Part shown: positions 11,378 to 35,490 of the stretch, in pieces
How positions within the stretch are numbered: the stretch's first letter is position 1
How the letters are laid out: the number at the start of each line of letters is the position of its first letter
From: Gemmatimonas sp.
GTDB taxonomy: Bacteria; Gemmatimonadota; Gemmatimonadetes; Gemmatimonadales; Gemmatimonadaceae
Reading direction: 5' to 3'
Length of the DNA stretch: 64,000 nt
Assembly: GCA_031414535.1 (NCBI GenBank)
Contig: JANNVQ010000055.1
Span: 15,592-79,591 of the forward strand
The notes under the pieces: generated by a model
The model's database searches: none
The model's input: the letters and a program-made list of their open reading frames with translations, nothing else
What the model was told of the DNA's origin: nothing
Program-made: the position numbers and the translations under genes

Positions 11378-11505
11378 CACCACGAAGGCACGAAGGGCTC
11401 ACAGTAAACTCACGGCCCCGCAATCCTAAAGAAGAAGTGCTTCTTGGAATGGCGGGGCCGTCGGATTGTCGCAGCACCCTTGGTGCCTGCGTGGTGAAAG
11501 CAGTT
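11378..11505. repeat. Nested-hairpin intergenic element, family 1 copy A
   Basis: Left arm CACCACGAAGGCACGAAGGG 11378-11397; right arm 11477-11496 (2 mismatches) plus tail AAAGCAGTT; inner stem ACGGCCCCGC 11412-11421 / GCGGGGCCGT 11452-11461. Confidence 0.92.
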
Positions 11506-11527
11506 CACAAAACTTTGAGGTATCGCA

Positions 11528-12118
11528 ATGGTTCGCACCGCGAGCACGATGTTGGAACTGGGGACGCAGGCGCCGGAGTTCGCGCTCTCGCGCGTGGACA
11601 CCGGCCGAGTGCTTGCCTTACGCGATCTTGCAGGGGCGCCCGCCACACTGGTCATGTTCCTCTGCGCGCACTGCCCTTACGTGAAGCACGTCGCACCGGC
11701 GCTCGCGACGCTGACCTCCGAGTTCATTAAGCGCGGAGTGGCGGTCGTGGGCATCGCCTCAAACGATGCGACGGCGTATCCGGATGACGCGCCGGACGCC
11801 CTGGCGCGTGATGCCGCAGATCGCGGATACGAGTTCCCGTATCTCTACGATGAATCGCAGGCGGTGGCCAAAGCCTACCAAGCCGCCTGCACGCCGGACT
11901 TCTTCCTGTTTGATAAGGACCGTCGCCTCGCGTATCGTGGGCAGTTCGATGCCTCACGACCGCGCAACGACTTGCCAGTGACCGGCGCCGACCTCCGTGC
12001 GGCCCTGGAGGCTGTGCTCGCGGGCACGCCCGTGCCAAAGCCCCAGTACCCGAGCATCGGCTGCAACATCAAATGGAAGGACGCGCCGGAGTACTTCAAG
12101 CCTGAAGGCGTGAAGTAG
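11528..12118 (+). CDS. Thioredoxin-like / AhpC-TSA family protein
   Basis: MFLCAHCPYV, YPDD, YLYDESQAVAKAYQAACTPDFFLFD, SIGCNIKW; GAGG RBS. Confidence 0.92.
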   Translation: MVRTASTMLELGTQAPEFALSRVDTGRVLALRDLAGAPATLVMFLCAHCPYVKHVAPALATLTSEFIKRGVAVVGIASNDATAYPDDAPDALARDAADRGYEFPYLYDESQAVAKAYQAACTPDFFLFDKDRRLAYRGQFDASRPRNDLPVTGADLRAALEAVLAGTPVPKPQYPSIGCNIKWKDAPEYFKPEGVK

Positions 12119-12129
12119 CCTCAGACTGA

Positions 12130-12187
12130 GACGGATGACGAATGACGGATGCCGAAGCAGTAAAGCATCCGTCATCCGTCTTCCGCC
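12130..12187. repeat. Heptamer-repeat hairpin, family 2 copy 1
   Basis: GACGGAT-GACGAAT-GACGGAT-GC 12130-12152, 12-nt loop, GC-ATCCGTC-ATCCGTC-TTCCGCC 12165-12187. Confidence 0.88.
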
Positions 12188-12216
12188 CACCCTCTGGGCG
12201 CGGATAGCCCTCCCCC

Positions 12217-12262
12217 TTGCCATCCGCTCGGAGCGGCCCTAACCTACAACCGAATGGTTGCA
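12217..12262 (+). promoter_or_regulatory. Sigma70-type promoter and ArsR-type operator overlapping the start codon
   Basis: TTGCCA 12217-12222, 17-bp spacer, TAACCT 12240-12245; palindrome CAACC-GAAT-GGTTG 12247-12260 covers ATG 12254. Confidence 0.7.
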
Positions 12263-12619
12263 CGTTTTCCCCTCCCCGACGCGGACCTTGACCGCCTATT
12301 CCGCGCACTCGCCGATTCCACTCGGCGCGACATCGTTGCGCGGGTGCTCTCAGGCGAAGAGGCCTCGGTGTCTGCCCTCGCTGCGCGCTACGACATGTCC
12401 TTCGCAGCCGTACAGAAGCACGTGGCCGTGCTGGAGGATGCGGAACTCGTGACCAAGCGCCCCCAAGGCCGCGAGCGGATGGTGCGCGGCAATCCGGAGC
12501 GGCTCGCGCGGGCGCGCGCCGTGCTTCTTCAACTCGAGGGGCTCTGGATGTCCCGCTTCAGCCAGCTCGATGCGATCCTCGCCGAGCGGCGGCCCACGAA
12601 GGAGACGTCATGCCAATAA
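12254..12619 (+). CDS. ArsR/SmtB-family HTH transcriptional regulator
   Basis: LDRLFRALADSTRRDIV, SVSALAARYDMSFAAVQKHVAVLEDAELV, GRER; precedes an SRPBCC gene. Confidence 0.92.
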   Translation: MVARFPLPDADLDRLFRALADSTRRDIVARVLSGEEASVSALAARYDMSFAAVQKHVAVLEDAELVTKRPQGRERMVRGNPERLARARAVLLQLEGLWMSRFSQLDAILAERRPTKETSCQ

Positions 12620-13587
12620 CGGAGATCATCTCGAACGCCGCCGACTTCACACTGAAGATTGTCGCCGACTATCCCGTGTCGGTGGAGCGGCTCTGGGAGG
12701 CGTATTCTGATCCGCGGCAGATTGAACGCTTCTGGGGACCGGAGCAGTGGCCGGCGACGTTTACGCGGCACGACATGGCTGTAGGTGGCATGTCCACCTA
12801 TTACATGACCGGACCCGACGGCAATACGTCTGGCGGATACTGGCGCTTCCTGACGGTGGAGCCGTACAAGTCATTCGAAGTCCTCGACGGCTTCGCCGAT
12901 GCTAGCGGCGCACCCAACGATAGTATGCCGACCATGCGCATGGTCTTTCAGTTCTCCCAGACCGCGACGGGCTCGCGCTTCGAGATCGTGACTTACTTTC
13001 CCAGCCTCGAGGCCATGGAAGAGCTAGTGAAGATGGGCATGATGGAAGGCATGAAGTCGGCGATGGGGCAAATCGATGCCGTGTTGCTCGACTTGAAGAC
13101 CTTCGCGGCCACGATGCCGACCGAGGCGCAGATACTCAACGACACGCAGATTCGCGTGAGCCGCGTGATTCGCGGCCGCGTGGCAGACGTGTGGCGCGCC
13201 CATCACGATCCCGCTCTCATGAAGCGTTGGCTACTTGGTCCCGATGGCTGGACGATGCCCACCTGCGAGATCGCCACCACGGTTGGACAGCGCTATCGCT
13301 ACGAGTGGGAGACGCTCGATAAGTCACAGCGCTTTGGCTTCGAGGGCGAGTTGCTGGAGACGAACCCGCCGCATCGCGCAGTCACGAGCGAGCAGATGAT
13401 TGGGATGGACGGTCCCGGAACACGCAACGAGATGACGCTCACCGCGGTCCCGAGCGGGACACTGCTCAGCATCGTCATCACCTACCCGAGCAAGGACGTG
13501 CGCGACATGGTACTCGGCACCGGCATGACGGCCGGCATGGAAACCAGCTATGCGCGGCTTGAGCGTGAGATCCTTGTGAAGGCTTAA
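12610..13587 (+). CDS. Tandem SRPBCC (AHSA1-like) domain protein
   Basis: Two START-like repeats (VERLWEAYSDP..IERFWGP; VADVWRAHHDP..MKRWLLGPDGW..; GMTAGMETSYARLE); GGAG RBS; overlaps the ArsR gene. Confidence 0.9.
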   Translation: MPITEIISNAADFTLKIVADYPVSVERLWEAYSDPRQIERFWGPEQWPATFTRHDMAVGGMSTYYMTGPDGNTSGGYWRFLTVEPYKSFEVLDGFADASGAPNDSMPTMRMVFQFSQTATGSRFEIVTYFPSLEAMEELVKMGMMEGMKSAMGQIDAVLLDLKTFAATMPTEAQILNDTQIRVSRVIRGRVADVWRAHHDPALMKRWLLGPDGWTMPTCEIATTVGQRYRYEWETLDKSQRFGFEGELLETNPPHRAVTSEQMIGMDGPGTRNEMTLTAVPSGTLLSIVITYPSKDVRDMVLGTGMTAGMETSYARLEREILVKA

Positions 13588-13722
13588 CTGCTTTCACCAC
13601 GAAGGCACGAAGGGTGCCGCAATAATCTTTCGGCCCCGCAACCCCAAAAAGCATTCCTTTCTTAGGGTTGCGGGGCCGTCAGTTTGCAGGGAACCCTTCG
13701 TGCCTTCGTGGTGATTGCTGTT
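13586..13722. repeat. Nested-hairpin intergenic element, family 1 copy B
   Basis: Tail AACTGCTTT 13586-13594; perfect 20-bp arms 13595-13614 / 13694-13713; inner 14-bp stem CGGCCCCGCAACCC 13631-13644 / 13665-13678. Confidence 0.93.
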
Positions 13723-13752
13723 TCAGTGGCACGACGACGTTGAACCGCGACG

Positions 13753-16239
13753 TCACACGACGACGTTCAGCAACCGCCCCGGCACGAGGATGACCTTCTT
13801 GGGCTCACCGGTGATGAACTTGCCGATTACCGGATCAGCCTTTGCCGCCGCGAGCGCGGCGTCCTGCGTGATGTCCTTGGCCACCACGATCTTGCCGCGC
13901 GTCTTGCCGCCGACCTGCACAACCAGGTCAATCGTGTCGGAGGTCAGCAGCGAGGCATCGAACGCCGGCCAGCGCGACTGGAACACGCTCGTCTTGTGAC
14001 CGAGCATCTCCCACAGTTCTTCGGCGATGTGCGGTGCGAAAGGCGCCACCATTTGCACCATCGGCTCCACTTCGGCGCGCGCCGGGACGCGCTCGCCGCG
14101 ACGCAGCACGTTCATGTATTCCATCATCGCGGCGATGGCCGTGTTGTAGCTGAGCGCCGGCGTGTCCTCGCCCACCTTCTTGATCGTCGCGTGCAGCTTG
14201 CGCAGCACCTCATCATCCGCCGCGCCGGTACCGCAGTCACGAACCGAAGCCCAGAGACGATCCAAAAAGCGCTTGACGCCACTGATGCCCGAATCGCGGA
14301 AGTCACCGCCTTCTTCGAAGGGCCCGAGGAACATCAAGTAGGTGCGAAATGCGTCCGCGCCCCATTCATTGATGAAGTCGTCCGGATTCACCACGTTGCC
14401 CTTGGACTTCGACATCTTCGCGCCTTCCTTGATGATCAGGCCATGCGCGCGGAACTTCGTGAACGGCTCCTCGAAGTCGAGATGCCCGGCATCGTGAAGC
14501 ACCATCGTGATGAAGCGCGAGTACAGGAGGTGCAACACGGCGTGCTCGTTGCCACCGATGTAAGTGGTAACGGGCAACCACTTCTTCGTCGTTTCCCGAT
14601 CGAACGGCACGTCGTCGCGCCCCACGCTCGGGTAGCGCAGAAAGTACCAGGCGCTATCCAAGAACGTGTCGCTGACGTCCGTCTCGCGACGTGCCTGCTT
14701 GCCGCAGCTTGGGCAGGGCACGCGGTACCACTCTTGGTGACGAGCCAGCGGCGAGATGCCTGAGTCATCCGGCTTGAAGTCTGGGATGTTGGGCAGCAAC
14801 ACCGGCAGCTGGTCCTCAGGCACCGGCACGGTTCCGCAATCATCGCAGTAGATGATCGGGATTGGTGGGCCCCAGTAGCGCTGCCGCGAGATGCACCAAT
14901 CGTGCAGGCGATAATTGGTTACGCCCACTCCGGCGTGCTTACTCGCGAGCCACGCCGTGGCCTTCACCTTCCCCTCTTCCACGCCCAGTCCGTCGAACTG
15001 CTCCGAATTGACGAGCACGCCATCGCCCACGTAGGCGGCATCGCCCAGCGGAGTCTTGGCGTTGTCGCCGGGTCCCGCAACGACGCGCTGGATGGGCAGG
15101 TCAAACTTCTGCGCAAACTCAAAGTCGCGCTCGTCGTGGCCAGGCACAGCCATGATGGCGCCCGTGCCGTACTCCATCAGTACGTAGTCGGCAATCCAGA
15201 TCGGGATCATCTCGCCGGTAGCGGGATTCACAGCGTAGGAGCCAGTGAACTCGCCGGTCTTTTCTTTGGTCGTCTTCCGGCTCACTAAGTCCTGCTTGAC
15301 TGATGCTGCGAGATACTCGCGCACCACGCCTTCCTGCATCGGCGTCGTGAGCTGCTCCACCAACGGGTGCTCAGGCGCAAGCACCAAGTATGTGGCGCCA
15401 AAGATTGTGTCGGGGCGCGTGGTGAAGACTTCAATCTGCGTGCTGCCGCTGCGGACTTCCGTGGTCACGGACACCGCGGAGCTACCAGCATCGGTGAGCG
15501 GGTCGAGCACGGCAAAGCGCAGGCGCGCACCATCGGAGCGGCCAATCCAGTTGCGCTGGGCCTGCTTGGTGGTGGCGGACCAGTCGAGCGTGTTCAGATT
15601 CTCGAGCAGGCGCGGCGCGTACTTGGAGATGTTGAAGAACCACTGCTCCAGAAAGCGCTGCTCCACCACCGTGCCGCAGCGCTCGCAGGCACCGGCCACG
15701 ACCTGCTCGTTGGCGAGCACGGTCTTGCACGAGGGACACCAATTGACGGCTGCGGCCTTCTTATACGCTAGGCCGTGCTTGTGCAGCTGCAGAAACACCC
15801 ACTGCGTCCACTTGTAGTAGCTGGGGTCGGTGGTATCCACCGACTTGCTCCAGTCCACCATCAGACCGGCGCGGTCCAGCTGCCGACGGAAATTCCGGAT
15901 GTTGCTCGGAATCAGCTCCATCGGATGGCGGCCCACCTTGAGCGCAAAGTTCTCCGAGTGGATGCCAAAGGCGTCATATCCCAGCGGCTCGAAGACCGTA
16001 TGGCCTTGCAGGCGCTGGAAGCGCGCATAGATATCACAACCAGTGAACGCAAAGAGGTTTCCCACGTGCAGCCCTTCGGCTGACGGGTAGGGGAACATCA
16101 TCAAGGCGTAAAAGGGGCTCTCGCCCTGCGCGATGTCGGTGCGGTGTGTGCCAAGTTCGGCCCACCGCTCTCGCCATCTCGCTTCAATTGCTGCCGGATC
16201 GTAGGCGACCGGCTCTGGAACCGATGAAGTCATCGTCAT
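13753..16239 (-). CDS. leuS: Leucine--tRNA ligase
   Basis: [14 protein letters not shown] (HIGH-like), [10 protein letters not shown] and [16 protein letters not shown] editing motifs, [16 protein letters not shown]. Start 16239 or 16233. Confidence 0.98.
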
Positions 16240-16277
16240 TGGAAGGGAATCCGTTGAATCTAGCCCCCTCGCGAACC

Positions 16278-16313
16278 GCCTCCAACACGGCCTCCAACAC
16301 GGCCTCCAACACG
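16278..16313. repeat. Tandem repeat 3 x 12 bp (GCCTCCAACACG)
   Basis: Three exact copies between the divergent leuS and MCP genes. Confidence 0.9.
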
Positions 16314-16334
16314 GCGGGCGCGCCGGAACACGCC

Positions 16335-17615
16335 GTGCGCACGCACATCATAGATCGACTCGCTGACTGGGGTGCGCTGATTGGCTCCATCGCCGTGGTC
16401 GTGCTGCTGGCCGCCGGCTGGTCGAGCGTGGGCCGGCTGAACGCTGCCGGAGATTTCATCTGGTTCGTCGCGCTACTCCTTGCGGTGGCCGTGGCCTCGG
16501 CAGCCCTAGTGGTTCGCTTGGTGGTCTCTCCCATCGTGGGCGAGCAGCTGCGCGGGCTCGCCAATGTGGCCGAGGCGATTGCAGCAGGGGATCTGACGCA
16601 GACGCCGGCGGCGGCATCTGCGGGTGGCCAACTTGGCCGTCTAGGGCGCGCCATGGTGGAGATGGCGGGCACCCTCCGACACATGGCCGCGCTCGTGCGC
16701 GAGAACGCCACTGCCACGGCCACCCGCGCCACGGAGATCACCGCGAGCACGGAGCACATGGCGCAGGCCGCGTCGGGTATCGCGGAGACGGCGAGTACGC
16801 TCAGTGATGAAGCGGCGCAGATGGCCGAGACCATCCGCCTCTTGAACGCTGACGCAGCCCGGCTGGCAACCTTGGCCGGCAACGTCGCGGGTGGTGCCGC
16901 TGATGGCCTCGCACGCAATGATCGGCTCAAGGCGCTCGCCAACGAGAACGCCGGCATTCTCGACGAGAGTGCGCGGCGTCTCGACGAGCTCGCGATTGAC
17001 GTACAGGAAGGCGCTAGGGCTACGGAATCACTGGCCACCGCCTCCGATGAGATTCGCGCCTTCGTAGCGCTCGTGCAGAAGATTGCGCGGCAGTCTAAGC
17101 TGCTCGCCCTTAACGCCGCTATGGAGGCAGCTCGAGCCGGTGAGCACGGCGAGGGCTTTACCGTGGTCGCCAACGAGGTGCGCCGTTTGGCGCAGAGCAC
17201 GGCGGAGGCCGCAGAGCGCACAGATGAGTTGATGAAATCGCTCATCGCGCAGATGGAAACCGCAGGCGCCACGGGTGTACGTGCGCGCAGCACAGTGGAA
17301 GCCGTGCGCGGTGCCACCGCCCGCGGACGTCAGGCCTTTGCGCAGGTCGAACGCGCTGTCGGCGATGGTGAGCAATGGGTGGGGGCGATGTCCACTTCGG
17401 CCATCGCCGGTCAGACGCTCGCTGGCGAACTCACCGCAAAGCTCACGTCTCTCGCGCAGGGCACGCAGGCATTCGCGGACTCGATGCACGACGTCGCCGC
17501 CGCCAGCGAGGAGCAAAGTGCCAGCACCGAGGAGATTGCCGCCGCGGCCAATTCCTTAGTGCGAGCGGCGGATGGCGTGACGGAAACGGCGGGGCGTTTT
17601 AGGTCGGGTGGGTGA
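16335..17615 (+). CDS. Methyl-accepting chemotaxis protein (2 TM, HAMP, signalling domain)
   Basis: [37 protein letters not shown] hairpin-tip motif; HAMP ([22 protein letters not shown]). Start uncertain; GTG 16335 chosen to avoid overlap with leuS. Confidence 0.92.
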
Positions 17616-17717
17616 CGCTGGGCCGTTAGGCGAGCGGCAGTTCATCTAGCGGGCGCATGTCCCCCGTCCCATATTCGCCCCGTCGGTCCTGCCGCCACCA
17701 TACAACCCACGCTCCTC

Positions 17718-20700
17718 GTGCCCACCGCCGCAAGCGGCTCCGCTGACCGCCAACGCGAAGGCGCGTTGCTGCGCCTCTCGTCGGGCATTGCCGCTGCGGA
17801 ATCTGAGCAGGGCATCTGTCGTGCGGTGGTGGACGGGTTGCATGATCCCGCGCTGGGGTTCGACTTCGTGGCGATGCTGCTGGTGGACCACGCGAGCGGC
17901 GACCGTGTCGTGGTCGCGTCGCGCGGCGCCGCTGATATGCCCGACGGACATCGCGTGCCGCCGGGCTCGGGCCTCAGTGAGTTGCCGCTCCTCGATGGCC
18001 GCCTGCACTACACGCCGCAGGTGACCACCGAGACTCGCTACCTGCCCACGCGCAACGAAGGGTCGGAAGTGGATGTGCCCCTTCTCGTCAACAAACAGCT
18101 GGTCGGCGTGCTCGTCGTCGAGAGCAACAAGCACCACGCCTTCGGCACCGATGACTTCGAGGTGCTGCGCGCCGCCGCGCATCAGGCGGGCATCGCCATC
18201 GGCCGTGAGCGCCTGCTACGCGACGAGCGCCGCCGCGCCGACGAGCAGGAAGCGCTACGTGCGACCATCGCCGACCTCTCGGCCCGGCTCGAACTCTCCG
18301 ATCTGCTCCAGGCGGTGCTCGAGCGTGCCATCCAACTGCTCAAGGTGAGCCACGGCGAGCTGGCAATCTTCCACCGCGAGCGGGACGAGTTGGAAATCGT
18401 CGCCAGCTACAACCTCGGCCGCAAGGATACGACCGGCACGCGGATGAAGGTCGGCGAGGGCGCGATGGGCCATGTGGCGCTCACTCGCGAACCCTACATC
18501 ATCCCGGACTACCAAGCCTGGATGTCGCGCTCCGAGCAGTACGCGCAATCCGATTTCCACGCCGTGATGGTCGCGCCGCTGATGATGGGGCGACAGCTGG
18601 TCGGGGCCATCGCCTTCATGGATCGCGACAGCCGCCGCGCTTTCGGCCCCGAGGACCTGCGGCTGCTCGACCTCTTCGCGCCGCAGGCGGCCGTAGCGAT
18701 CGAGAACGCCCGGCTCTTCTCGGCGGAACGCCGCCGCGCTGAGGAGCAGCGGGCCCTGTTGGCCACGATGCAGGATCTCGCGGGCCAGCTGGAGCTGTCC
18801 ACGGTGCTGCAACGCGTGCTCGAGCGGGCGGTTGGCCTCTTGAGCGTGACGGGTGGAGAACTTGCCACCGTGGACGCGAGCACCGGCGAGTTGGTCATCG
18901 TGGCGAGCCACGACATGGGCGCCAATGCCGTCGGGACACGCATCGCGCTCGGCGACGGCGCAATGGGACGCGTTGCCCAGACCCTCGAGTCACTGATTAT
19001 CCCGCGCTATCAAGATTGGGATGGCCGCTCCGACAAGTACGGGCAGACCACGGTGCAGTCCGTGATGGCCACGCCTCTGATGATCGGAACCCGGCTCGTC
19101 GGCGCGATCGCCAGCGTGCACTCCGACCCGCAACGCGTCTTCGGCAACGAGGACCTGCGGCTGCTCGAGCTCTTCGCGCCGCAGGCGGCCATCGCCATCG
19201 AGAACGCGCGACTCTTCACCCAGGCGCAACACCAGCAACAGTATTTCAGCGAGCTGGTGGCGAACAGTCCCGTCGCCATCGTCACGCTAGATCGCAATCA
19301 CAACGTCGTCAGCTGCAATCCCGCCTTCCTCACACTCTACGGCTACGCCGAATCGGAGGTGATTGGGTACCAGCTCGACGCGCTCATCACGTCTGAACAG
19401 GATCGCGCCGAGGCCGTGCGCTACACCACGGAGGCGCTCGCCAGCCGTCCGGTGCGCGCGATCGCCCGTCGCAACCGCAAGGACGGCAGTCTCGTAGACG
19501 TCGAGGTCTTAGGCGTGCCGGTGGTGGTGGACGGCGAGCTCGTGGGCCTGATGGCGCTCTATCACGACGTCACCGCGCTGTTGCGGGCCCGTCGCGACGC
19601 CGAGGCGGCCAACGCGGCGAAGAGCGACTTCCTCGCCAACATGAGCCATGAGCTGCGCACGCCGCTTAACGCAATCATCGGCTATAGCGAGATGCTCGAG
19701 GAGGATGCGGTGGACCGCGAGGCTGCGGAGGCCATCACGGACCTCCGTCGCATTCGTTCGGCGGGGCATCACCTGCTCGCGCTCATCAACGACGTCCTCG
19801 ATCTCTCCAAGATTGAGGCGGGGAAGATGGAGCTGCACCTCGAGACCTTCGACCTCAGTGCGGCCGTGGATGCCGTGGCGTCCACGGTGGCACCGCTCAT
19901 TGAGAAGAACGGCAATGCGCTCGTGCTCGAGCTCGACGAACGCCTCGGCAGCATGCACGCGGACGTCACGCGGGTGCGGCAGGTGCTGTTCAACCTGCTC
20001 TCCAACGCGAGCAAGTTCACGGAGCGCGGGCGCATCACGCTCGGGGCGGTACGGCGCGACGAGGACGCGCGTGCGTGGATCGAGCTCACCGTGCGCGACA
20101 CGGGCATCGGCATGACGCCCGAACAGCTCGGGCGTCTGTTCAACGCGTTTGCGCAGGCCGAGTCGTCCACGGCCAAGAAGTACGGAGGCACGGGCCTCGG
20201 TCTCGTGATTAGCCGCATGTTCTGCGAGATGATGGGCGGCACCGTGACGGTGGCCAGCGAGGCCGGGGTGGGCACCACGTTCACGGTGCGCCTCCCGGTG
20301 GAAGTGGTTGACCCCGCAGCCGCGCCGGTGCCAGCGCTGGTCCATGAGGGCCAGGCAGGGGCCGGCTGCGTGCTCGTGATTGACGACGATCCGGCCACCC
20401 GCGACCTCCTCGCGCGCATGCTCGTGCGCGACGGGTACCGTGTGCTGCAGGCCGCGAACGGCGCGACCGGCCTCGCGCTGGCCCGCAGCGAACGTCCCGA
20501 CGTGATCACGCTCGATGTCGTGATGCCTGGGCTTGATGGATGGGAGGTCCTTTCGGCGCTTAAGGAGGATCCGGAGGTCGCGGCAATCCCCGTCGTCATG
20601 CTCACCATCACCGATGACCGAAACCTTGGCTTCTCGCTTGGCGCATCGGAGTATCTGACCAAGCCGATTGAGCGCGACCGACTCAGCGCCGTGCTCGCCC

Positions 20701-21086
20701 GCTACCGCAAGGGTCCCGATGCGCGCGTGCTGATTGTTGATGACGATACGGCGACGCGCACGATGTTGCGGCGCGCCTTGGAGAAGGATGGGTGGTCAAT
20801 CGCCGAGGCCGAGAACGGGCGCGTGGGGCTGGCTGCCGTCGGCGCCTCGGCGCCGCAGTTGATTCTGCTCGATCTCATGATGCCCGAGATGGATGGCTTC
20901 GAGTTCCTCGAGGCGCTTCGAGCCGACGCCGCCAACGCGTCGATTGAGGTTGTCGTGATGACAGCCAAAATCCTCACCGAAGACGACCGCCGGCAGCTTA
21001 GCAGCGGGGTGCAGCGGGTGCTGCACAAGGGTGAGCACAACGAGGCGGCCTTCCTCTCGGCCGTACGGTCGCACATGGTGCACTGA
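17718..21086 (+). CDS. Hybrid sensor histidine kinase (3 GAF, PAS, HisKA, HATPase, 2 REC)
   Basis: FLANMSHELRTPLN (H-box), NLLSNASKFT, DTGIG, GGTGLGL; two receiver domains (VIDDD..ITLDVVMP; IVDDD..ILLDLMMP); three GAF-like repeats. Confidence 0.95.
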   Translation: MPTAASGSADRQREGALLRLSSGIAAAESEQGICRAVVDGLHDPALGFDFVAMLLVDHASGDRVVVASRGAADMPDGHRVPPGSGLSELPLLDGRLHYTPQVTTETRYLPTRNEGSEVDVPLLVNKQLVGVLVVESNKHHAFGTDDFEVLRAAAHQAGIAIGRERLLRDERRRADEQEALRATIADLSARLELSDLLQAVLERAIQLLKVSHGELAIFHRERDELEIVASYNLGRKDTTGTRMKVGEGAMGHVALTREPYIIPDYQAWMSRSEQYAQSDFHAVMVAPLMMGRQLVGAIAFMDRDSRRAFGPEDLRLLDLFAPQAAVAIENARLFSAERRRAEEQRALLATMQDLAGQLELSTVLQRVLERAVGLLSVTGGELATVDASTGELVIVASHDMGANAVGTRIALGDGAMGRVAQTLESLIIPRYQDWDGRSDKYGQTTVQSVMATPLMIGTRLVGAIASVHSDPQRVFGNEDLRLLELFAPQAAIAIENARLFTQAQHQQQYFSELVANSPVAIVTLDRNHNVVSCNPAFLTLYGYAESEVIGYQLDALITSEQDRAEAVRYTTEALASRPVRAIARRNRKDGSLVDVEVLGVPVVVDGELVGLMALYHDVTALLRARRDAEAANAAKSDFLANMSHELRTPLNAIIGYSEMLEEDAVDREAAEAITDLRRIRSAGHHLLALINDVLDLSKIEAGKMELHLETFDLSAAVDAVASTVAPLIEKNGNALVLELDERLGSMHADVTRVRQVLFNLLSNASKFTERGRITLGAVRRDEDARAWIELTVRDTGIGMTPEQLGRLFNAFAQAESSTAKKYGGTGLGLVISRMFCEMMGGTVTVASEAGVGTTFTVRLPVEVVDPAAAPVPALVHEGQAGAGCVLVIDDDPATRDLLARMLVRDGYRVLQAANGATGLALARSERPDVITLDVVMPGLDGWEVLSALKEDPEVAAIPVVMLTITDDRNLGFSLGASEYLTKPIERDRLSAVLARYRKGPDARVLIVDDDTATRTMLRRALEKDGWSIAEAENGRVGLAAVGASAPQLILLDLMMPEMDGFEFLEALRADAANASIEVVVMTAKILTEDDRRQLSSGVQRVLHKGEHNEAAFLSAVRSHMVH

Positions 21087-21104
21087 GCGGCCGACCGCCG
21101 CGGT

Positions 21105-22172: not shown

Positions 22173-22181
22173 GAAGTCTCC

Positions 22182-22249
22182 GAAGGTGTGACGATGGTCT
22201 TGCATATCGTAGCCCGTTCCGGCGACGTTCACCACATCGTCACTCCTTC
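22182..22249. promoter_or_regulatory. 15-bp inverted repeat pair in the divergent intergenic region
   Basis: GAAGGTGTGACGATG 22182-22196 and CATCGTCACTCCTTC 22235-22249 (14/15 complementary). Confidence 0.6.
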
Positions 22250-22262
22250 ACCTGGATTCCTG

Positions 22263-23663: not shown

Positions 23664-23672
23664 GGAGAAACA

Positions 23673-25523: not shown

Positions 25524-25526
25524 ATG

Positions 25527-25590
25527 GACGGATGACGGATGACGGATGCTGGGGCAGTTCGCTTGTGGCATCCGTTATCCGTCTTCCGTC
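25527..25590. repeat. Heptamer-repeat hairpin, family 2 copy 2
   Basis: (GACGGAT)3-GC 25527-25549, 18-nt loop, GC-ATCCGTT-ATCCGTC-TTCCGTC 25568-25590. Confidence 0.88.
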
Positions 25591-25608
25591 CCAATTGGAG
25601 TAGAGCGT

Positions 25609-25983
25609 ATGGCAGGAGTTAAGCTCGACGGCGCTGGCACGCAGAAGATGAAGACCTTGGAGGAAGCGCAGATTACCCTCCAGAAGATTCACGGGATTGT
25701 GGAGCGCATGGCACTCGACGTGAAGAATCAGCGCGGCGTCGGCCTCACGGTCGGGCAGATCAAGCGCACAGCCGAGCCGCTGCAGGGTCAGCTGAAGGGG
25801 CAGTTTGGCATTATTGCCGACCAGGTCACCGCGATGGTCTTGTCTATGGGCAGGGGTGGTGGCGAGCAGAGCAAGGTGCGGGTACTTCGCGAGTCCGTGG
25901 CACAATTGCGTACCGCAATGGAGATGGCCGCATCAAAGGTAAAGAAGGAGCACGCGGTGGAGATTGAGATTTCGCCGGACTGA
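25609..25983 (+). CDS. Hypothetical all-helical protein (124 aa)
   Basis: GGAG RBS 8 nt before ATG 25609; typical codon usage; amphipathic helices. Confidence 0.75.
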   Translation: MAGVKLDGAGTQKMKTLEEAQITLQKIHGIVERMALDVKNQRGVGLTVGQIKRTAEPLQGQLKGQFGIIADQVTAMVLSMGRGGGEQSKVRVLRESVAQLRTAMEMAASKVKKEHAVEIEISPD

Positions 25984-26050
25984 GGCTGGACCATTACAGG
26001 ACTGGGGTTCGGAACCCGTTCTGGCTCCACAACTTGCGAGAATCTCCCGC

Positions 26051-26079
26051 TTGCCCCACCCAATCGGGTGGGGTAGCTT
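26051..26079 (+). promoter_or_regulatory. Putative sigma70 promoter of the oxidase operon, with a palindromic spacer
   Basis: TTGCCC 26051-26056, 17 bp, TAGCTT 26074-26079; CCCCACCC-AATC-GGGTGGGG 26054-26073. Confidence 0.55.
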
Positions 26080-26140
26080 CCTCGGGTCGCAATCGTGGGC
26101 AGTTCCCGGTTCCGGTTTTGTTCCCCCAGCCTCAGAAAAA

Positions 26141-27415
26141 ATGTCGATGCTGCGCCTGCGCAAGGCAGCACCAGCCCTGCTTGCTGCAGTGGCTCTCCTG
26201 ACGCTTAACGCGTGTAGTGGAATGGAGTCCGCTCCGAATTCCACTTTTAATCACACCACTGATCTAAACACGTCCATCGACGGACTTTGGGATCTCCTGC
26301 TACTCTGGGGAACCATCGTCTTCGTTGTTGTGGAAGTGGCGTTGATTTTCACGATCTACCGCTTCCGGAAGCGGCCGGGTGGTGCGCCTGCCAAACAGAT
26401 TCACGGCAATGTTGCGCTTGAAATCACGTGGACGGTGATTCCGGCGGTGATTCTCGTGTTGATCGCCGTGCCGACGGTGAAGACCATCTTCCAGACGCAG
26501 GCGCCGGCTCCCGCTGGCGCGCTGACCATCGAAGTCACGGGCCATCAGTGGTGGTGGGAATTCCACTACCCCGAGTACGGCGTGACGACGGCCAACGAGG
26601 TGTACATCCCCGTCGGTCGCACGGCGAACTTCGTGCTCCGCACCAAGGACGTGTTGCACTCGTTCTGGGTTCCGCAGATGGGCGGCAAGCGCGACCTCAT
26701 CACTAATCGGACCAACACACTCTGGTTTACGCCGCGTGTGGATCTTGGGACTAACGCGTGGAACGGCTTCTGCACTGAGTACTGCGGCTCCAGCCATGCG
26801 AACATGAAGTTCCGGCTCTTTACGGTGCAGCCCGACGAGTTTGCCTCCTGGGCAGCGCACCAGGCACGCCCGGCACTTCCGCATGACACGGCCACTTCTA
26901 CCGCGGCGCCGGCAGTCCCCCCCGTGACGGTGGCTTCGGCCTCCGCCACGATGCCGGTGCCCGCGATGCAGGCGCCCGAGGCATCCGCAGCGGGCTACGT
27001 GTTCCCGGCGGCAAATCTTCCGGAACACGTTATTCCGCAGACGCCGATTCCGGCCTCGCTCAAGTTCGACGACGCTTTGCTCGCGCAGGGTGATGCCAAG
27101 CGCGGCGAGACCTCGTTCATGATGGGCGGCTGCATCGGTTGCCACGCTATCAGCGGCAACCCGATGGCCATGAGCAACGTCGGACCGAACCTCACGCACT
27201 TCGCTTCTCGCCACACGCTCGGCGGCGGACTCTTCCGCAACGACGACACGACGCTGGCACGCTGGATCAAGAACGCCCGCGCAATGAAGCCGGGCGCCTT
27301 GATGCTCGTCGTCGGCATTGGCGAGTACAGCCCCGACCTCAAGGGCCCCGTCACTGCGGGCCTCACCGATGCGCAGATCGCCGATGTCGTGGCGTACCTG
27401 CGGTCGCTCAAGTAA
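26141..27415 (+). CDS. ctaC: Cytochrome c oxidase subunit II with fused cytochrome c (caa3-type)
   Basis: Lipobox LNAC; LEITWTVIP; GHQWWW; CuA ligands DVLHSFW and CTEYCGSSHANM; heme c motif CIGCH and GPNLTH. Confidence 0.96.
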   Translation: MSMLRLRKAAPALLAAVALLTLNACSGMESAPNSTFNHTTDLNTSIDGLWDLLLLWGTIVFVVVEVALIFTIYRFRKRPGGAPAKQIHGNVALEITWTVIPAVILVLIAVPTVKTIFQTQAPAPAGALTIEVTGHQWWWEFHYPEYGVTTANEVYIPVGRTANFVLRTKDVLHSFWVPQMGGKRDLITNRTNTLWFTPRVDLGTNAWNGFCTEYCGSSHANMKFRLFTVQPDEFASWAAHQARPALPHDTATSTAAPAVPPVTVASASATMPVPAMQAPEASAAGYVFPAANLPEHVIPQTPIPASLKFDDALLAQGDAKRGETSFMMGGCIGCHAISGNPMAMSNVGPNLTHFASRHTLGGGLFRNDDTTLARWIKNARAMKPGALMLVVGIGEYSPDLKGPVTAGLTDAQIADVVAYLRSLK

Positions 27416-27432
27416 TCCGGAGACCCTGACTC

Positions 27433-29349
27433 ATGGCATCCATCGCTCACCCCACGACTGCGGCCCACGCGTCGGCGGAGAATGAGAACACCGGTATCTG
27501 GAGCTGGATCACAACGGTCGATCACAAGCGGATCGGCACCTTGTACCTCTGGACCGCGCTCTTCTTCTTCCTCGTCGGCGGCTTCGAGGCCACCCTAATC
27601 CGCACGCAGCTCATGAAGCCGAACATGGGCTTCGTGAGCGCCGAGACGTACAACCAGCTGTTCACGATGCATGGAACGACGATGGTGTTCCTTGCCGTGA
27701 TGCCGCTCTCGGCGGCGTTCTTCAACTATTTGATTCCGCTGCAGATTGGCGCGCGCGACGTGGCGTTCCCGCGTTTGAACGCGTTCTCGTACTGGGTGTA
27801 TTTACTCGGCGGCATCTTCATCACGCTGCCGATTCTGTTCCAGGTTGCGCCTGATGGCGGCTGGTTTGGCTACGCGCCGCTTACCACGCCACGCTTCTCG
27901 ACCGGACCGAATATCGACTTCTGGGTGCTCGGACTCCAGATCCTCGGCATCTCCTCGCTCGCGGCGGCGTTCAACTTCATCACCACCATCGTGAACCTCC
28001 GTGCGCCAGGCATGAGCCTGATGCGCATGCCGATGTTTACGTGGATGTCGTTTGTGGTGCAGTTCCTCATTATCCTCGCGTTCCCGCCGATCACGGTGGC
28101 GCTGTTCTTCCTCCTGATGGATCGTTTCTTCGGGACGAACTTCTACGCGATTGCCGCCGGCGCCGACCCGCTGCTGTGGCAGCACCTGTTCTGGGTCTTC
28201 GGTCACCCAGAGGTGTACATCCTGATTCTCCCGGCCTTCGGACTCGTGTCCGAAGTGCTGCCCACCTTCTCGAAGAAGCCGCTGTTCGGCTACAACGTGA
28301 TGGTGTACTCGGGCATCATGATCGGCTTCCTCGGCTTTGGCGTCTGGGCCCACCATATGTTCGCGGTGGGAATGGGCGCGGTCGCTGACTCGATATTCTC
28401 GCTGATGACGATGCTCATCGCGATTCCCACCGGCGTGAAGATTTTCAACTGGATTGCCACGATGTGGAGCGGCGAGGTCCGCTTCACGGTGCCGATGAAG
28501 TTTGCGATCGCGCTCATCGCGATGTTCACCATCGGTGGCATCTCCGGCGTGATGCACTCGTCGCCGCCGGCCGACCTGCAGCAGACGGACACCTACTTCG
28601 TGGTGGCGCACTTCCACTACGTGCTGTTCGGCGGCTCCATCATGGGCATCTTCGCCGGTATCTATTTCTATTATCCGAAGATGACGGGCCGGCATCTCAA
28701 CGAGACGCAAGGCAACTGGCATTTTTGGCTGAATTTCATCGGCATGAACCTCACGTTCTTTCCGATGCACTTCAGCGGCCTGATGGGTATGTCGCGCCGC
28801 ATCTATACGTATGACGCGGGGCAGGGCTTCGACCTGTTCAACATGATGGCGACCTACGGGACATACCTGCTCGTGGTGGCGACGGCAATTTTCGTCTGGA
28901 ACTTCGTGCGCAGCCACAAGCACGGCGAGATTGCCGGCAACGACCCCTGGGGAGGCGCCACGCTCGAGTGGTCCATTCCTTCGCCGCCGCCGGAGTACAA
29001 CTTCGCGCAGATTCCTGAGGTCACCTCACGCTATCCGCTGTGGGATCTGAAGGATCCGAAGATGACGGCGGGTATTGATCACTCGCACGCCGACGCGAAG
29101 GTCATCACCGACACGCACGCGGTTCCGGTGCACGAGGAGACGCAGCGTCACACGGCCAAGGAGCTCGGCATTCCAATGCCGCTGCCCACGGCCAAGCCAC
29201 TGTTCGTCGCCTTTTCGATGGTCGTGATGTTCTGCGGCCTGCTCTTCCTGCGCATAGATATGTTCGCCGTCGCGTTGACGGTAATGCTTGGCGGCGCCGC
29301 AGCCATGATCGCTGGGCTGTATCTGTGGCTCACCAGCCCCCTCGAGTAA
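27433..29349 (+). CDS. ctaD: Cytochrome c oxidase subunit I (A1 type)
   Basis: TVDHKRIG, FTMHGTTM, WVFGHPEVY, VWAHHMF, VAHFHYV; C-terminal extension with two extra TM helices. Confidence 0.98.
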   Translation: MASIAHPTTAAHASAENENTGIWSWITTVDHKRIGTLYLWTALFFFLVGGFEATLIRTQLMKPNMGFVSAETYNQLFTMHGTTMVFLAVMPLSAAFFNYLIPLQIGARDVAFPRLNAFSYWVYLLGGIFITLPILFQVAPDGGWFGYAPLTTPRFSTGPNIDFWVLGLQILGISSLAAAFNFITTIVNLRAPGMSLMRMPMFTWMSFVVQFLIILAFPPITVALFFLLMDRFFGTNFYAIAAGADPLLWQHLFWVFGHPEVYILILPAFGLVSEVLPTFSKKPLFGYNVMVYSGIMIGFLGFGVWAHHMFAVGMGAVADSIFSLMTMLIAIPTGVKIFNWIATMWSGEVRFTVPMKFAIALIAMFTIGGISGVMHSSPPADLQQTDTYFVVAHFHYVLFGGSIMGIFAGIYFYYPKMTGRHLNETQGNWHFWLNFIGMNLTFFPMHFSGLMGMSRRIYTYDAGQGFDLFNMMATYGTYLLVVATAIFVWNFVRSHKHGEIAGNDPWGGATLEWSIPSPPPEYNFAQIPEVTSRYPLWDLKDPKMTAGIDHSHADAKVITDTHAVPVHEETQRHTAKELGIPMPLPTAKPLFVAFSMVVMFCGLLFLRIDMFAVALTVMLGGAAAMIAGLYLWLTSPLE

Positions 29350-29355
29350 CCGACA

Positions 29356-30042
29356 ATGTCCGCACACGCAGACGGCGCAGCACACGCCGAACATCACACG
29401 CACTACACGACCACCGGTCTCGACAACCGGAAGATCGCCATCTGGGCGTTCATCGGGTCGGAGTGCATGCTCTTCGCTTCGCTCATCGCGACCTACCTGA
29501 TTTACAAGGGCAAGTCGCTGGTCGGTCCGTATCCGCACACCGAGTACATCGATGCCGCGGGCAAGGTGTTCAAGCCCATCCTCGACATCCCAGTCACCTC
29601 GGCGTCCACCTTCGTGCTCTTGGCGTCATCGTTCGCGATGGTGCTCGCCCTGCAGGCCGTGCAACTAAAGGGCGTCCCACTGCCCTCGGGCGCTGGCTGG
29701 TGGACGCGCGCGCAGCGCTCCTCGCAGCTCTGGCTCGCAGTGACCGCCGCACTGGGCACCACCTTTCTCGGCTTCCAGGCCTACGAGTTCACCGCATTCG
29801 TGAACGAAGGCCTGACCATCAAGACCAACCTGTTTGGCTCCACGTTCTTCACGCTGACCGGCTTCCACGGCGCGCACGTGACCGTGGGCGTGCTCTGGCT
29901 GATGTCGCTACTCTGGGTGGATCGCACCCGCGGCCTGGCCGGTCCGGGCGATGAGCTGCTCGTAGACATCACGGCGCTGTACTGGCACTTCGTGGACGTC
30001 GTCTGGATCGCGATCTTTACGCTCGTCTACCTCATTCAGTAA
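29356..30042 (+). CDS. ctaE: Cytochrome c oxidase subunit III
   Basis: WAFIGSECMLF, FFTLTGFHGAHV, LYWHFVDVVW. Confidence 0.96.
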   Translation: MSAHADGAAHAEHHTHYTTTGLDNRKIAIWAFIGSECMLFASLIATYLIYKGKSLVGPYPHTEYIDAAGKVFKPILDIPVTSASTFVLLASSFAMVLALQAVQLKGVPLPSGAGWWTRAQRSSQLWLAVTAALGTTFLGFQAYEFTAFVNEGLTIKTNLFGSTFFTLTGFHGAHVTVGVLWLMSLLWVDRTRGLAGPGDELLVDITALYWHFVDVVWIAIFTLVYLIQ

Positions 30043-30054
30043 CCGGGCACCGAA

Positions 30055-30378
30055 ATGGCACACGAATCCGCGCACGTCGACAAGCACGCCGCCCACGCGC
30101 ATCCGAACGGTGCGACCTACCTCAAGATCTTCGTCATCCTGACGCTGATTACGGTGGTCGAGGTCTGGGCGTACTACATCCCAGCCCTCGTTGCGTCCCC
30201 GCTGTTCAATCCGTCGCTCATCATCATGTCGGCGGTGAAGTTCGCCATCGTGGTGATGTTCTATATGCACCTGAAGTACGATCACAAGATTTTCAAAATG
30301 CTATTCAGCGGACCGCTCGTCATTGCCATGGCGACGATTGTGGCGCTGTTGTTCCTGTTCCGGCAGCTCAGCTTCTAG
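30055..30378 (+). CDS. ctaF: Cytochrome c oxidase subunit IV (caa3)
   Basis: YLKIFVILTLITVVEV, KFAIVVMFYMHLKYD; operon position. Confidence 0.9.
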   Translation: MAHESAHVDKHAAHAHPNGATYLKIFVILTLITVVEVWAYYIPALVASPLFNPSLIIMSAVKFAIVVMFYMHLKYDHKIFKMLFSGPLVIAMATIVALLFLFRQLSF

Positions 30379-30395
30379 AAAGAACGGCAGAGGCC

Positions 30396-30527
30396 TTTCA
30401 CCACGAAGGCACGAAGGGAATCGAAACACACTCACGGCCCCGCAACCCTAAAGAAGCTCTAGCTTCTTGGCGTAGCGGGGCCGAAAGTTTTCTGCAAACT
30501 CTTCGTGCCTTCGTGGTGAAAGCCGTT
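30396..30527. repeat. Nested-hairpin intergenic element, family 1 copy C
   Basis: Arms 30399-30418 / 30499-30518 (1 mismatch), tail AAAGCCGTT; inner stem CGGCCCCGC 30435-30443 / 30475-30483 with AAGAAGCT/AGCTTCTT apex. Confidence 0.93.
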
Positions 30528-30541
30528 AAATTTCCAGACGA

Positions 30542-31372
30542 ATGCGCATTCCACAGATATTCCTGCACCCCAACGTTGACCTGAGCCAAGGCGGATTCAC
30601 TACGCATTGGTCTACAGTCACGGGGTTGGTCGTATTGCAGGCGCTGTGGATTCTTCGTGCACGCGCGCATGCGCCCCACGAGAAGCCGAGCCCACTTCAG
30701 ACTTTCTGCTTCACCATCGGTCTCGTGGTGATGTTCTTCGCGTTGAATGGGCCGGTGCACGATATCTCCGACTTCTATTTGTTCAGCGGACACATGGTGC
30801 AGCATCTCGTGCTTACCATCGTCGTGCCGCCGCTGCTCCTGCTGGGCACGCCGGGCTGGATGCTGCGGCCTGCGCTCAAGAACGCCACCGTGAATCGCGT
30901 CGCGAAGATCATCACCGTCCCGACCGCGGCATTCACAATCTTCAATCTCGTCCTCGCTGGCTGGCACCTGCCGCCGATGTATAACGCGGCCATGTACTAC
31001 CATGCCGTGCACATCATTCAACACCTGATGTTCCTGGTGGCGGCAGTGCTCATGTGGTGGCCCATGCTGAGCCCGTTGCCGGAGTTGCCGCGCTTGAGCT
31101 ACCCGGGACAGATGCTGTACAGCTTCGTGATGACGCTACCGATGACCATCATATCAATCTTCATCGTCTATGCCGACCACGTGCTGTATCCCGCCTACGC
31201 GAGCTCGCCGCGGCTCTGGGGGCTGTCTCCACTGGAGGACCAGCGGCTTGGTGGACTCATCATGTGGATACCGGGCGGATTGTTCTTTTATCTACTGACT
31301 TCGGTGATTTTCTTCCGCTGGGTGACGGCCGAGCGCGACGATCAGGTCGGAGCTCAGGTCCGCGAGGCCTAG
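30542..31372 (+). CDS. ctaG: caa3 oxidase assembly factor CtaG family
   Basis: LFSGHMVQHL..PPLLLLGTP, WHLPP.Y, HIIQHL, LEDQRLGGLIMWIPG; directly after the oxidase operon. Confidence 0.9.
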   Translation: MRIPQIFLHPNVDLSQGGFTTHWSTVTGLVVLQALWILRARAHAPHEKPSPLQTFCFTIGLVVMFFALNGPVHDISDFYLFSGHMVQHLVLTIVVPPLLLLGTPGWMLRPALKNATVNRVAKIITVPTAAFTIFNLVLAGWHLPPMYNAAMYYHAVHIIQHLMFLVAAVLMWWPMLSPLPELPRLSYPGQMLYSFVMTLPMTIISIFIVYADHVLYPAYASSPRLWGLSPLEDQRLGGLIMWIPGGLFFYLLTSVIFFRWVTAERDDQVGAQVREA

Positions 31373-31406
31373 GAGCAACCCCTCCGGGGTGCTAACCTAC
31401 GAGGAG

Positions 31407-32963: not shown

Positions 32964-32969
32964 AGCGGG

Positions 32970-33224
32970 CTAGCTGAGCAGCGGTCCTTCGGTGGCGCTC
33001 GGGTCCGTCGCCGCGGTGGCATCAAGAATTCGCACCGCAGTGTCCACGTCGCCCTGACGCACGACGAGGCGCACGGGGTTCAACACATTCAAGAACGGCA
33101 GCATCCCGCCAGCGTTGTCCTTCAAGAGCATGCTGACAATGCCGTTGGCATCGAGCACCGATTGCGCAAACTCGGCTTCGATGCTGTTCTGATACGACCG
33201 GACGACGAACGCATTCTCTGGCAT
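32970..33224 (-). CDS. DUF2007 / putative signal-transducing small protein
   Basis: YQNSIEAEFAQSVLDANGI..VRLVV...D...AVRIL; GGAGG RBS before ATG 33224. Confidence 0.8.
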   Translation of the reverse strand: MPENAFVVRSYQNSIEAEFAQSVLDANGIVSMLLKDNAGGMLPFLNVLNPVRLVVRQGDVDTAVRILDATAATDPSATEGPLLS

Positions 33225-33334
33225 CGTACCTCCGGAGGCCGTGTGGATGAGCGGGTATCGTAACCTTGGCGCCGAATGTTGGCTAGGCGCTCCCATGTGG
33301 GAAGATACCGTGCGGTGAGCGCAATAGTTCCCCG

Positions 33335-34534
33335 CTAGCCCTCGCGCATCCAGCGCAAGGTTTCACGAAGTGTCGGCTCCTTCCCGTACATCAACATGCC
33401 AGCGCCAAACACCTTGCCCGCTATGCGTCTGAAGAGCCAAGTGGTCGCGGAAAGCAGCAACAACGCCAATACTACCTCCCACCACGCGACCGTCGTCACC
33501 GCGAGACGCATCGGCATCATCGCGCTGGAGGTAAGGGGAAAGACGCCAAGCACTTGAGCCGCCGGCGAATCAAGCTTGGATGTCATGCCGAACGCCACGC
33601 CAATCGGCAGCATCGGCGCAAAGAGGAGCAGCGTGCGCGTCGAGCTGTTCGGATCGTCAATCGTCGCGGCGATTGCGGCCATCAGGCTGAACCACAGCAC
33701 CACGCCCAGTAGCGTGATGAGGGTAATGAGCGCGAGTACACCGAAGTCCCCGCCCAGTGACGGCATGGGCAATGCGCTGCGACCGAGCGCCAAGGGTAGC
33801 ACCTTCACCACGGCGTAGAGGCCGATGGTCGTGATGCCGGTTCCTACCAGCGCCGCACCGGTAAGTCCGATGATCTTGCCGTCCATCCACACCTGCGGCG
33901 GAACGATGGCAACCAACTGTTCCGTCACGCGCTGCTGCTTCTCACCCGTGATGCCCGTGAACAGCGTACCAAATCCGCCCATGACCAGCGTGAACCCGAT
34001 GAACAGGATGGCCAGCGCCGTGATGCGCGTCGAGAGTTCCGTACGCCTGGCGCCAGCATCTGTGAGTGTCTTGCGGAAGGCGAATGGCGTCACTAAGGCC
34101 GCGCCTTCCGGCGACGCGGCCACGACCCGTGCGAGCAACGCGGACTGCCGCGCTGCCGTCAGCGCACGCTCGAGAGTTTCCGCCCACTCGGCCTGTGATC
34201 GAATCATCAGTTCCGCCTCGAGGGCCGACGTCACCACGAGCACGCCGCTCAGTCTCTTCTCAGCGAGCGCCGCGCTTGCGGACGCCACCGTCCACGATTC
34301 GGAGCTATCCCAGGCCACGGGCTTGGCCTCGGGAAGCGGGAAGCCCAGCAAATCGCCGCCAATCACAGCAATCATCCTCGGCTTTTGCTCCGCCTTCGCA
34401 ACGGATCGTCCAACGAAGCCTCCGCCGAAGCCCATCACGAGCAAAATCGCGAAGCCAATGAGCTGCTGCTTCCACTTCACGAAGCGCATGAATTCCCAGC
34501 GCGCCACCTCCCACGTCTGTTGCCAGCGCGTCAC
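33335..34534 (-). CDS. ABC-2 type permease (NatB/YhaP-like)
   Basis: VARWEF, GITGEKQQRVTEQL...MDGKIIG, FPLTS..MMPMR, GMLMYGK. Confidence 0.88.
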   Translation of the reverse strand: MTRWQQTWEVARWEFMRFVKWKQQLIGFAILLVMGFGGGFVGRSVAKAEQKPRMIAVIGGDLLGFPLPEAKPVAWDSSESWTVASASAALAEKRLSGVLVVTSALEAELMIRSQAEWAETLERALTAARQSALLARVVAASPEGAALVTPFAFRKTLTDAGARRTELSTRITALAILFIGFTLVMGGFGTLFTGITGEKQQRVTEQLVAIVPPQVWMDGKIIGLTGAALVGTGITTIGLYAVVKVLPLALGRSALPMPSLGGDFGVLALITLITLLGVVLWFSLMAAIAATIDDPNSSTRTLLLFAPMLPIGVAFGMTSKLDSPAAQVLGVFPLTSSAMMPMRLAVTTVAWWEVVLALLLLSATTWLFRRIAGKVFGAGMLMYGKEPTLRETLRWMREG

Positions 34535-35274
34535 GCCGCCTCCCCATTGGTGATGCCAAGTTCCGCGTTGGCCGCTCCTACCTTTTCGACGTAGAGATCG
34601 TGCAGCGTCCCTCCGGCCACGAGCTCGCAGATACTCCCGTGCAGGAGTTCCTTGCCGCGATGTAGCACCATCACACGATCCGCCATTCGCTCTACCAGCG
34701 ACATCTGGTGCGCGCTGAACAGCAGCGTGGTGCCCGCCGCGCGAAGCTCACGCACAATCGAAAGGAATAACTCTTGATTGATCGGATCGAGGCCGCTGAA
34801 TGGTTCGTCCAGAATCGCGAAGCGTGGCGAATGCAGAATCGCTGCGGCCAGCTGCACCTTCTGCTGGTTGCCCTTTGACAAAGCGCTCAGCTTCTCCTTG
34901 GCGCGGTCGCCGAGTTCAAAGCGCTCAAGCCAAGTACTGGCGCGGCGTTCTGCCTCAGGGCCCGCTATGCCGCGCAGACGCGCGAAGTACGTGAGCGTGC
35001 GCTTGATGGGCATATCCTGATACAGGCCGCGATCCTCAGGCAGGTACCCCAGGTCGGCTGGTGGCAGCGATGAAGCGCCGCCCTGCCACACAATCCGTCC
35101 ACGGTCTGGCCGCGTGATGCCGACGAGCATGCGGAGCAGTGTGGTCTTGCCAGCGCCGTTGGGGCCGAGCAACGCGACGGCCTCGCCGGGCTGCACCTCG
35201 AGAGAAATGCCCGCGACGGCCTGCACCGTGCTGTAGCGCTTCTCGACGCGATCAATCGTGAGGAATGCTGTCAT
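34531..35274 (-). CDS. ABC transporter ATP-binding protein (NatA/YhaQ-like)
   Basis: GPNGAGKTT, GYLPEDRGLY, LSKGNQQK, ILDEPFSGLDP, SAH. Start at ATG 35274. Confidence 0.93.
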   Translation of the reverse strand: MTAFLTIDRVEKRYSTVQAVAGISLEVQPGEAVALLGPNGAGKTTLLRMLVGITRPDRGRIVWQGGASSLPPADLGYLPEDRGLYQDMPIKRTLTYFARLRGIAGPEAERRASTWLERFELGDRAKEKLSALSKGNQQKVQLAAAILHSPRFAILDEPFSGLDPINQELFLSIVRELRAAGTTLLFSAHQMSLVERMADRVMVLHRGKELLHGSICELVAGGTLHDLYVEKVGAANAELGITNGEAA

Positions 35275-35357
35275 GGTTCCCGATACGAAAGCGTGCGGGC
35301 TAACGTTTCGGCAAGAGCGCAACGATTTGCGTGATAGCTGGACAAGTACAAGGGCTA

Positions 35358-35490
35358 TTCACCACGAAGGCACGAAGGGCTCCCTGCAGCGTCCATCATC
35401 GACGCGCCCCCTAAAGTTCTTAGACTTTAGGGGGCGCGCTGAGTTACAGATCTGCTGGAAACCCTTCGTGCCTTCGTGGTGAAAGTCGTT
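35358..35490. repeat. Nested-hairpin intergenic element, family 1 copy D
   Basis: Perfect 20-bp arms 35360-35379 / 35462-35481, tail AAAGTCGTT; perfect 15-bp inner stem of different sequence, CGCGCCCCCTAAAGT 35403-35417 / 35424-35438. Confidence 0.93.

Follow-up and report, generated by a model that had tools for sequence, protein, structure and literature searches.

The best-described arrangement of the kind considered here pairs dispersed hairpin doublets of repetitive extragenic palindromes (REPs), called REPINs, with REP-associated tyrosine transposases (RAYTs). As set out in the accessible portions of the sources (PMC3116915, PMC5581495), the doublets are extragenic, the partner gene is single-copy, mostly vertically inherited, found at conserved loci and flanked by its cognate repeat, the repeat type tracks the partner, and the repeats serve as targets for insertion sequences (ISs) of the IS110 family. 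We analyzed a family of hairpins in a 64,000-nt window of Gemmatimonas sp. (contig C55, positions 15592-79591, of the source genome G000, which is 3.7 Mb, 64% GC and 98.4% complete) and found the same features, with a GxxExxY gene in the place of a RAYT. The two systems differ in their parts. The RAYT is an HUH tyrosine transposase, whereas the partner here is a 123-aa protein with a predicted PD-(D/E)xK fold; REPIN arms are short palindromes with GTAG or CGTC, whereas the arms here are tandem 8-9-nt units; and, unlike the RAYT, the gene here lies within one arm pair, tight on its start and stop codons, in a family where in-place replacement dominates. The best reading, by analogy, is a REPIN/RAYT-like partnership that appears to be built on an unrelated predicted nuclease.

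MITEs (miniature inverted-repeat transposable elements) derived from ISs are short non-autonomous elements with the terminal inverted repeats of the parent IS. By this definition the hairpins are MITE-like in their length of ~120 bp, in their terminal inverted repeats and in having a form with identical ends that carries one gene and looks autonomous. However, they show no target duplication, and the gene-bearing form exists as a single copy, at fixed loci, and carries no DDE or other transposase domain. No multi-copy IS that shares these ends and encodes a transposase was found in the source genome, where the only enclosed gene is the single-copy PF13366 gene described below. The GTAG- and CGTC-tagged REP superfamilies (PMC3733652, whose main text, in its accessible part, does not contain the name Gemmatimonas) are likewise multi-copy extragenic palindromes of many phyla, but at none of 100 arm flanks here does either tag lie within 8 nt of the arm. 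The enclosed gene encodes a member of the PDDEXK_3/GxxExxY family (PF13366, TIGR04256), the function of which is given as "Unknown" in the part of PMC3424549 available; GxxExxY is named in passing in the accessible text of one bioRxiv paper. A description of these arms, or of GxxExxY proteins tied to repeats, was not found in the literature searched, in which subscription journals were sparsely covered and to which supplementary repeat tables (PMC3733652, PMC5581495) that could list the arms are attached.

We favor, with modest confidence, a reading in which the hairpins are gene-less kin of a GxxExxY cassette whose predicted nuclease likely recognizes and cuts the arms, with repair overwriting the elements. 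The parts of this reading differ in strength: that the window hairpins and the cassette belong to one family is very likely, that the GxxExxY protein drives element turnover is probable, and cut-and-copy-over as the exact route is a tentative proposal. The elements of the window are as follows.

11378-11496: element A, 119 bp, GAAG-type arms, interior F1; 6 nt past a stop codon, between two plus-strand genes
13595-13713: element B, 119 bp, with arms that match perfectly over 21 bp and an F1 interior; at the leuS 3' end, in a convergent junction
30399-30518: element C, 120 bp, interior F1; within a caa3-type oxidase gene run, between subunit IV-like and CtaG-like genes
35360-35481: element D, 122 bp, with arms of GAAG type and an F2 interior
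47971-48036: element E, a 66-bp short hairpin with GGAG-type arms, at a convergent junction

A preliminary description of this DNA had reported A through D, and their positions and lengths proved exact; element E, whose arm type is that found around the genome's own GxxExxY gene, was absent from it. The terminal arms of A-D are CACCACGAAGGCACGAAGG(G), and the 20-bp terminal inverted repeats ascribed to them were confirmed: those of B and D pair perfectly over 20-21 bp, C has one mismatch in 20, and the right arm of A has two changes. When each of A-D was compared with 200 shuffles under DNA and RNA parameters, none of the shuffles folded as well (z -6.6 to -12.3 for DNA, -6.0 to -13.2 for RNA). 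Spacers that had been called variable and unpaired are partly paired in both sets of predicted folds, and "unpaired" must be given up. The core of D does differ from that of the other copies, as had been said, but not through compensatory changes relative to A-C: D is one of four near-identical copies that make up a separate subfamily, F2. Since D comes from another interior subfamily, a structured-RNA family cannot be concluded from a shared fold with unlike cores, and palindromic DNA would yield paired columns in a covariance model as well; no Rfam family matched anywhere in the window at gathering score.

The prediction of many copies genome-wide held. A broad version of the arm pattern matched 127 arms in the source genome, 100 of which form 50 inward pairs of 66-199 bp; chance matches, decayed partners and IS-broken copies are among the 27 left unpaired. 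We estimate ~60 elements with two arm types, GAAG and GGAG, which are one base apart per 8-nt unit. Exact 19-mer arms, of GAAG type, number 38-39. Interiors of the 50 paired elements are F1 in 16 (including A-C), F2 in four (including D), F3 in 18, short in five and other in seven. The shared outer tail noticed in the window recurs, as AAC[TG]GC, at 54 of 100 arm flanks. The elements have terminal inverted repeats and lack coding capacity, and the initial view of a multi-copy, non-autonomous palindrome lacking GTAG/CGTC ends stands.

The full form of this family appears to be one GxxExxY gene between inverted arms of the same kind. The sole inward arm pair of the source genome spaced 250-3000 bp apart, at C24:46967-47400, tightly encloses a gene for a 123-aa GxxExxY protein, which is the single PF13366 match of that genome in a profile search; no other gene there is enclosed by an arm pair. 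GxxExxY was thus rightly among the partners proposed beforehand. The other proposals failed: RAYT (Y1 HUH, PF01797) had no candidates in the source genome in a search whose control was positive in 6/14 genomes, and the two four-helix-bundle (PF05635) genes of the source genome are flanked by other repeats, not by these arms.

The cassette protein matches PF13366 and TIGR04256 with E values of 1.1e-39 and 1.7e-40, in a family of at least 593 confirmed matches. Residues E27, D67, E77 and K79, which we take to be a PD-(D/E)xK active site, are invariant in 25/25 sequences, and a QxxxY motif is nearly so. Its structure is predicted with a mean local confidence score (pLDDT) of 96.7, and fold searches show it to be weakly similar to Cas4, to restriction enzymes, to lambda exonuclease and to Hjc. 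A domain scan found no DDE or other transposase domain in it, and a sequence search of the PDB returned no match at E values up to 1. For the two closest gene pairs, the ratio of nonsynonymous to synonymous substitution rates comes to 0.04 and 0.21, and its median over 44 partly saturated pairs is 0.38; these comparisons indicate purifying selection on the gene.

Gene and repeats co-occur. PF13366 is present in 25 of 61 genomes searched, and among 37 genomes of the genus, 17 of the 19 with at least 18 arms yielded the gene, versus 3 of the 18 with three arms or fewer; because 24 of the 26 genus cassettes occupy two conserved chromosomal loci (13 and 11), the genus counts stand for few events. 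Of the three arm-poor carriers, one, G019, is rich in arms of the type that flanks its cassette, with 96. Inward arms flank the gene at ~25 of 28 relatives' GxxExxY loci, judged by eye, and both sides change together; the 28 come from a set of 29 loci, with a fragment excluded. When arms were classed by the base right after CACCAC, the majority arm class was the cassette class in 13 of 14 genomes in which one cassette class was seen. In the complete genome G078, from another species and our main comparison partner for the source genome, a single GxxExxY gene is flanked by GAAG arms of the window type, and almost all of the 65 arms are GAAG; of its wide arm pairs, one contains an unrelated IS and the other is two separate elements. 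When four cassette arms chosen beforehand were searched in five genomes, that of G062 had 19 matches, in G062 only, and that of G019 had 96 in G019 and 41 in G047, where the gene is flanked by that same arm. Beyond the order, 80 GTDB loci were fetched and 79 scored, from ~12 phyla as judged from record titles; inverted flanks were present at 55/79 GxxExxY loci, versus 4/287 among shifted controls and 22% when flanks were paired across loci.

Sites persist while their content changes. The comparison of G078 with the source genome covered 20 G078 regions with 25 elements, 22 of which have syntenic flanks in the source genome. There, 18 of the 22 sites are also filled and four are armless; at shared sites the arm type is often different, the interior comes from another family in about half (by eye), and old and new arms are interleaved at some. 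Arms occur at site A in 6/19 relatives, plus one remnant; where both genes are adjacent (five relatives), three sites are filled and two are empty (G003 and G004, gaps of 3 bp and 36 bp). Site B, in 11 relatives, holds eight elements with other arms or another interior, one IS-interrupted arm, one remnant and one with none, and its interior is mostly F3 in relatives and F1 in the source genome. At site D, all four relatives have arms at the same gene end, with a different sequence. The right flanks of G027 match G023 at A and the source genome at B; its elements differ nonetheless. None of three relatives (L157-L159) has arms at site C (window 30379-30541), and all three have a different GC-rich hairpin. 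By this comparison element C appears to be a lineage-specific gain which took the place of another hairpin and did not enter a bare junction. Because sites persist while arms and often whole interiors differ, elements are replaced in place.

The gain at C, the empty site A in G003 and G004, the four G078 sites that are armless in the source genome and the tails that frequently overlap the stop codon could also be expected of true REPIN-like transposition, in which the nuclease would excise or copy the hairpin and insert it at narrow stop-codon targets, with shared sites being repeated independent insertions. However, sharing of 18 of 22 sites among ~3,100 junctions exceeds what independent insertions would give, short of a very small set of targets, and the 123-aa predicted nuclease fold has no evident strand-transfer domain. 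Target duplications did not exceed chance either: the longest word common to the 30-nt flanks averages 4.38 versus 4.53 with shuffled pairing, a test in which duplications of 2-3 nt fall below detection. We consider transposition of this kind quite unlikely, and the free, MITE-like spread first suggested as the main process is not supported, given the same shared sites and lack of duplication.

Placement relative to genes, scored with a simple purpose-written gene caller, is strongly biased. None of the 50 paired elements lies within a called gene, and 42 of 47 begin within 20 nt of a stop codon, so that the placement first described for the window copies is general. Their junctions are tandem in 25 cases, convergent in 22 and divergent in three, versus 510, 81 and 282 in the background (gaps of at least 100 nt). 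An exception to intergenic placement may be a decayed single arm at C46:38913, which lies in an FtsK-like reading frame's variable linker or beside it. In addition, a predicted stem formed by the two arms of the cassette covers the gene's ribosome-binding site and extends to its start codon. A host RNA-level system would account for these features: GxxExxY would bind or cleave mRNA hairpins and set transcript ends or stability, its own arms would provide feedback, and turnover would be secondary gene conversion. The persistence of sites between species and a gene at fixed loci under purifying selection also fit such a role. Yet the arms are fully palindromic, without strand polarity; many congeners lack both family and gene; interior swaps and interleaved old and new arms need DNA-level copying; and selection against promoter insertions would give the same placement bias. 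We therefore regard an RNA-level system as unlikely, if still the strongest of the alternatives.

Conserved positions and enrichment at convergent junctions are compatible with a simpler possibility, ordinary terminators or stabilizer stems that RecA gene conversion has homogenized, GxxExxY being a passenger once caught between two arms. The preliminary description had held that few copies, positionally fixed, would point to ordinary terminators. Positions are indeed largely fixed, but copies are many, their sequence changes in place, and a 3' T-tract, the U-tract of an intrinsic terminator, follows just 3 of 100 stem ends; no terminator-like call was made at A or B. Moreover, the arms enclose the GxxExxY family in ~12 phyla and no other gene in the source genome, and gene and repeats co-occur. 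We judge this explanation improbable, the least likely of those weighed.

In the favored nuclease reading, the protein would bind the tandem 8-9-nt arm units and cut the arms, and host recombination would repair the cut from a sister copy, overwriting existing elements and occasionally founding new ones at gene ends. Replacement without target duplication would be explained because repair copies from a sister element. Pairing of the cassette arms over the ribosome-binding site would damp expression of the gene, and the host may tolerate the hairpins or use them as mRNA 3' stems. The GAAG copies of the window may be handled by the same relaxed enzyme, or may be leftovers of an earlier arm state of this locus, still visible in G078 and G020.

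It is important to note that several observations weigh against this reading. The cassette arms of the source genome are GGAG-type, yet the four window copies and the 38-39 exact arms are GAAG-type. The free arms of G024, the one mismatch in class, are unlike its cassette, and the kinship of the cassettes at two loci reduces the class match to few independent events. Two of the four pre-chosen cassette arms have no dispersed family (four matches in G047, two in G055, whose GxxExxY gene carries a stop codon), and G004 and G012, with 26 and 66 arms, yielded no gene in genomes that are 82% and 85% complete. Among the GTDB loci, 24/79 score below 24. The structural matches are weak (best Foldseek E 1.7e-3, best Z 7.9, with top rows tied and no single family standing out). 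Core identity of orthologous copies, 0.42-0.79, is lower than that of the best own-genome paralog in 18/18 cases, a comparison that has best-of-many bias and no ordinary-intergenic control. Finally, no clean base-level empty site was resolved, including in noisy contigs of three DNA runs over window 11001-31000.

The arms are themselves targets. A multi-copy IS110 (PF01548, PF02371) is inserted at one arm position with a CT core, and its copies in the source genome give six left and five right junctions at contig ends.

IS110 arm junctions in the source genome: C8:87976, C12:158, C24:49683, C43:129, C46:41709, C57:228
IS110 open reading frame: start of C35; in G078, locus L054

In G078, a related copy has split the cassette's upstream arm, and an IS end adjoins the arm at site B in G024. 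The left end of the IS110, ~240 nt of non-coding sequence, includes a segment that matches, in reverse complement, the right half of the target; presumably this end may encode a bridge RNA. One-position insertion in repeats is shared with REP-targeting IS110 elements such as ISPpu9 (PMC8450116, PMC12288879, as far as their accessible text goes); those target classic REPs, whereas the IS110 here targets another, new arm family.

Other mobile or repeated sequences were observed nearby. At C46:40965-41660, two small genes, by eye a RelE/phage-Gp49-like toxin and helix-turn-helix antitoxin pair, have one element on one side and, on the other, five arrayed arm units broken by an IS. The interior of one G078 element contains, at L062:1226-2453, an IS of integrase-core type that is unrelated and, by eye, IS481-like. 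A second repeat family of the source genome, of GATGACG-type 7-mers (132 overlapping 14-mer matches), is found upstream of a PF05635 four-helix-bundle gene; it was noticed genome-wide, in window relatives at site C, and in L003 and L004. Another PF05635 gene is bracketed by different inverted purine-rich repeats. The four-helix-bundle genes and their repeats are possibly a parallel gene-plus-repeat system.

More speculatively, the cassette may represent a second, independent domesticated nuclease-repeat system across many phyla: a minimal PD-(D/E)xK nuclease inside its own recognition arms, with hairpins at gene ends cut and then rewritten on the model of sister copies. Such a system would be a drive resembling homing that uses no transposase, stable and abundant enough to have its own IS110 parasite. 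The site data bear on how palindromic repeats persist in genomes that lack a RAYT, and suggest in-place rewriting as an answer. GxxExxY is a widespread family of unassigned function, and the cassette names its likely substrate. If the nuclease-arm partnership is true, a widespread orphan protein family gains a testable job, and a 123-aa nuclease with a co-varying target would offer a compact model for specificity that evolution can program.

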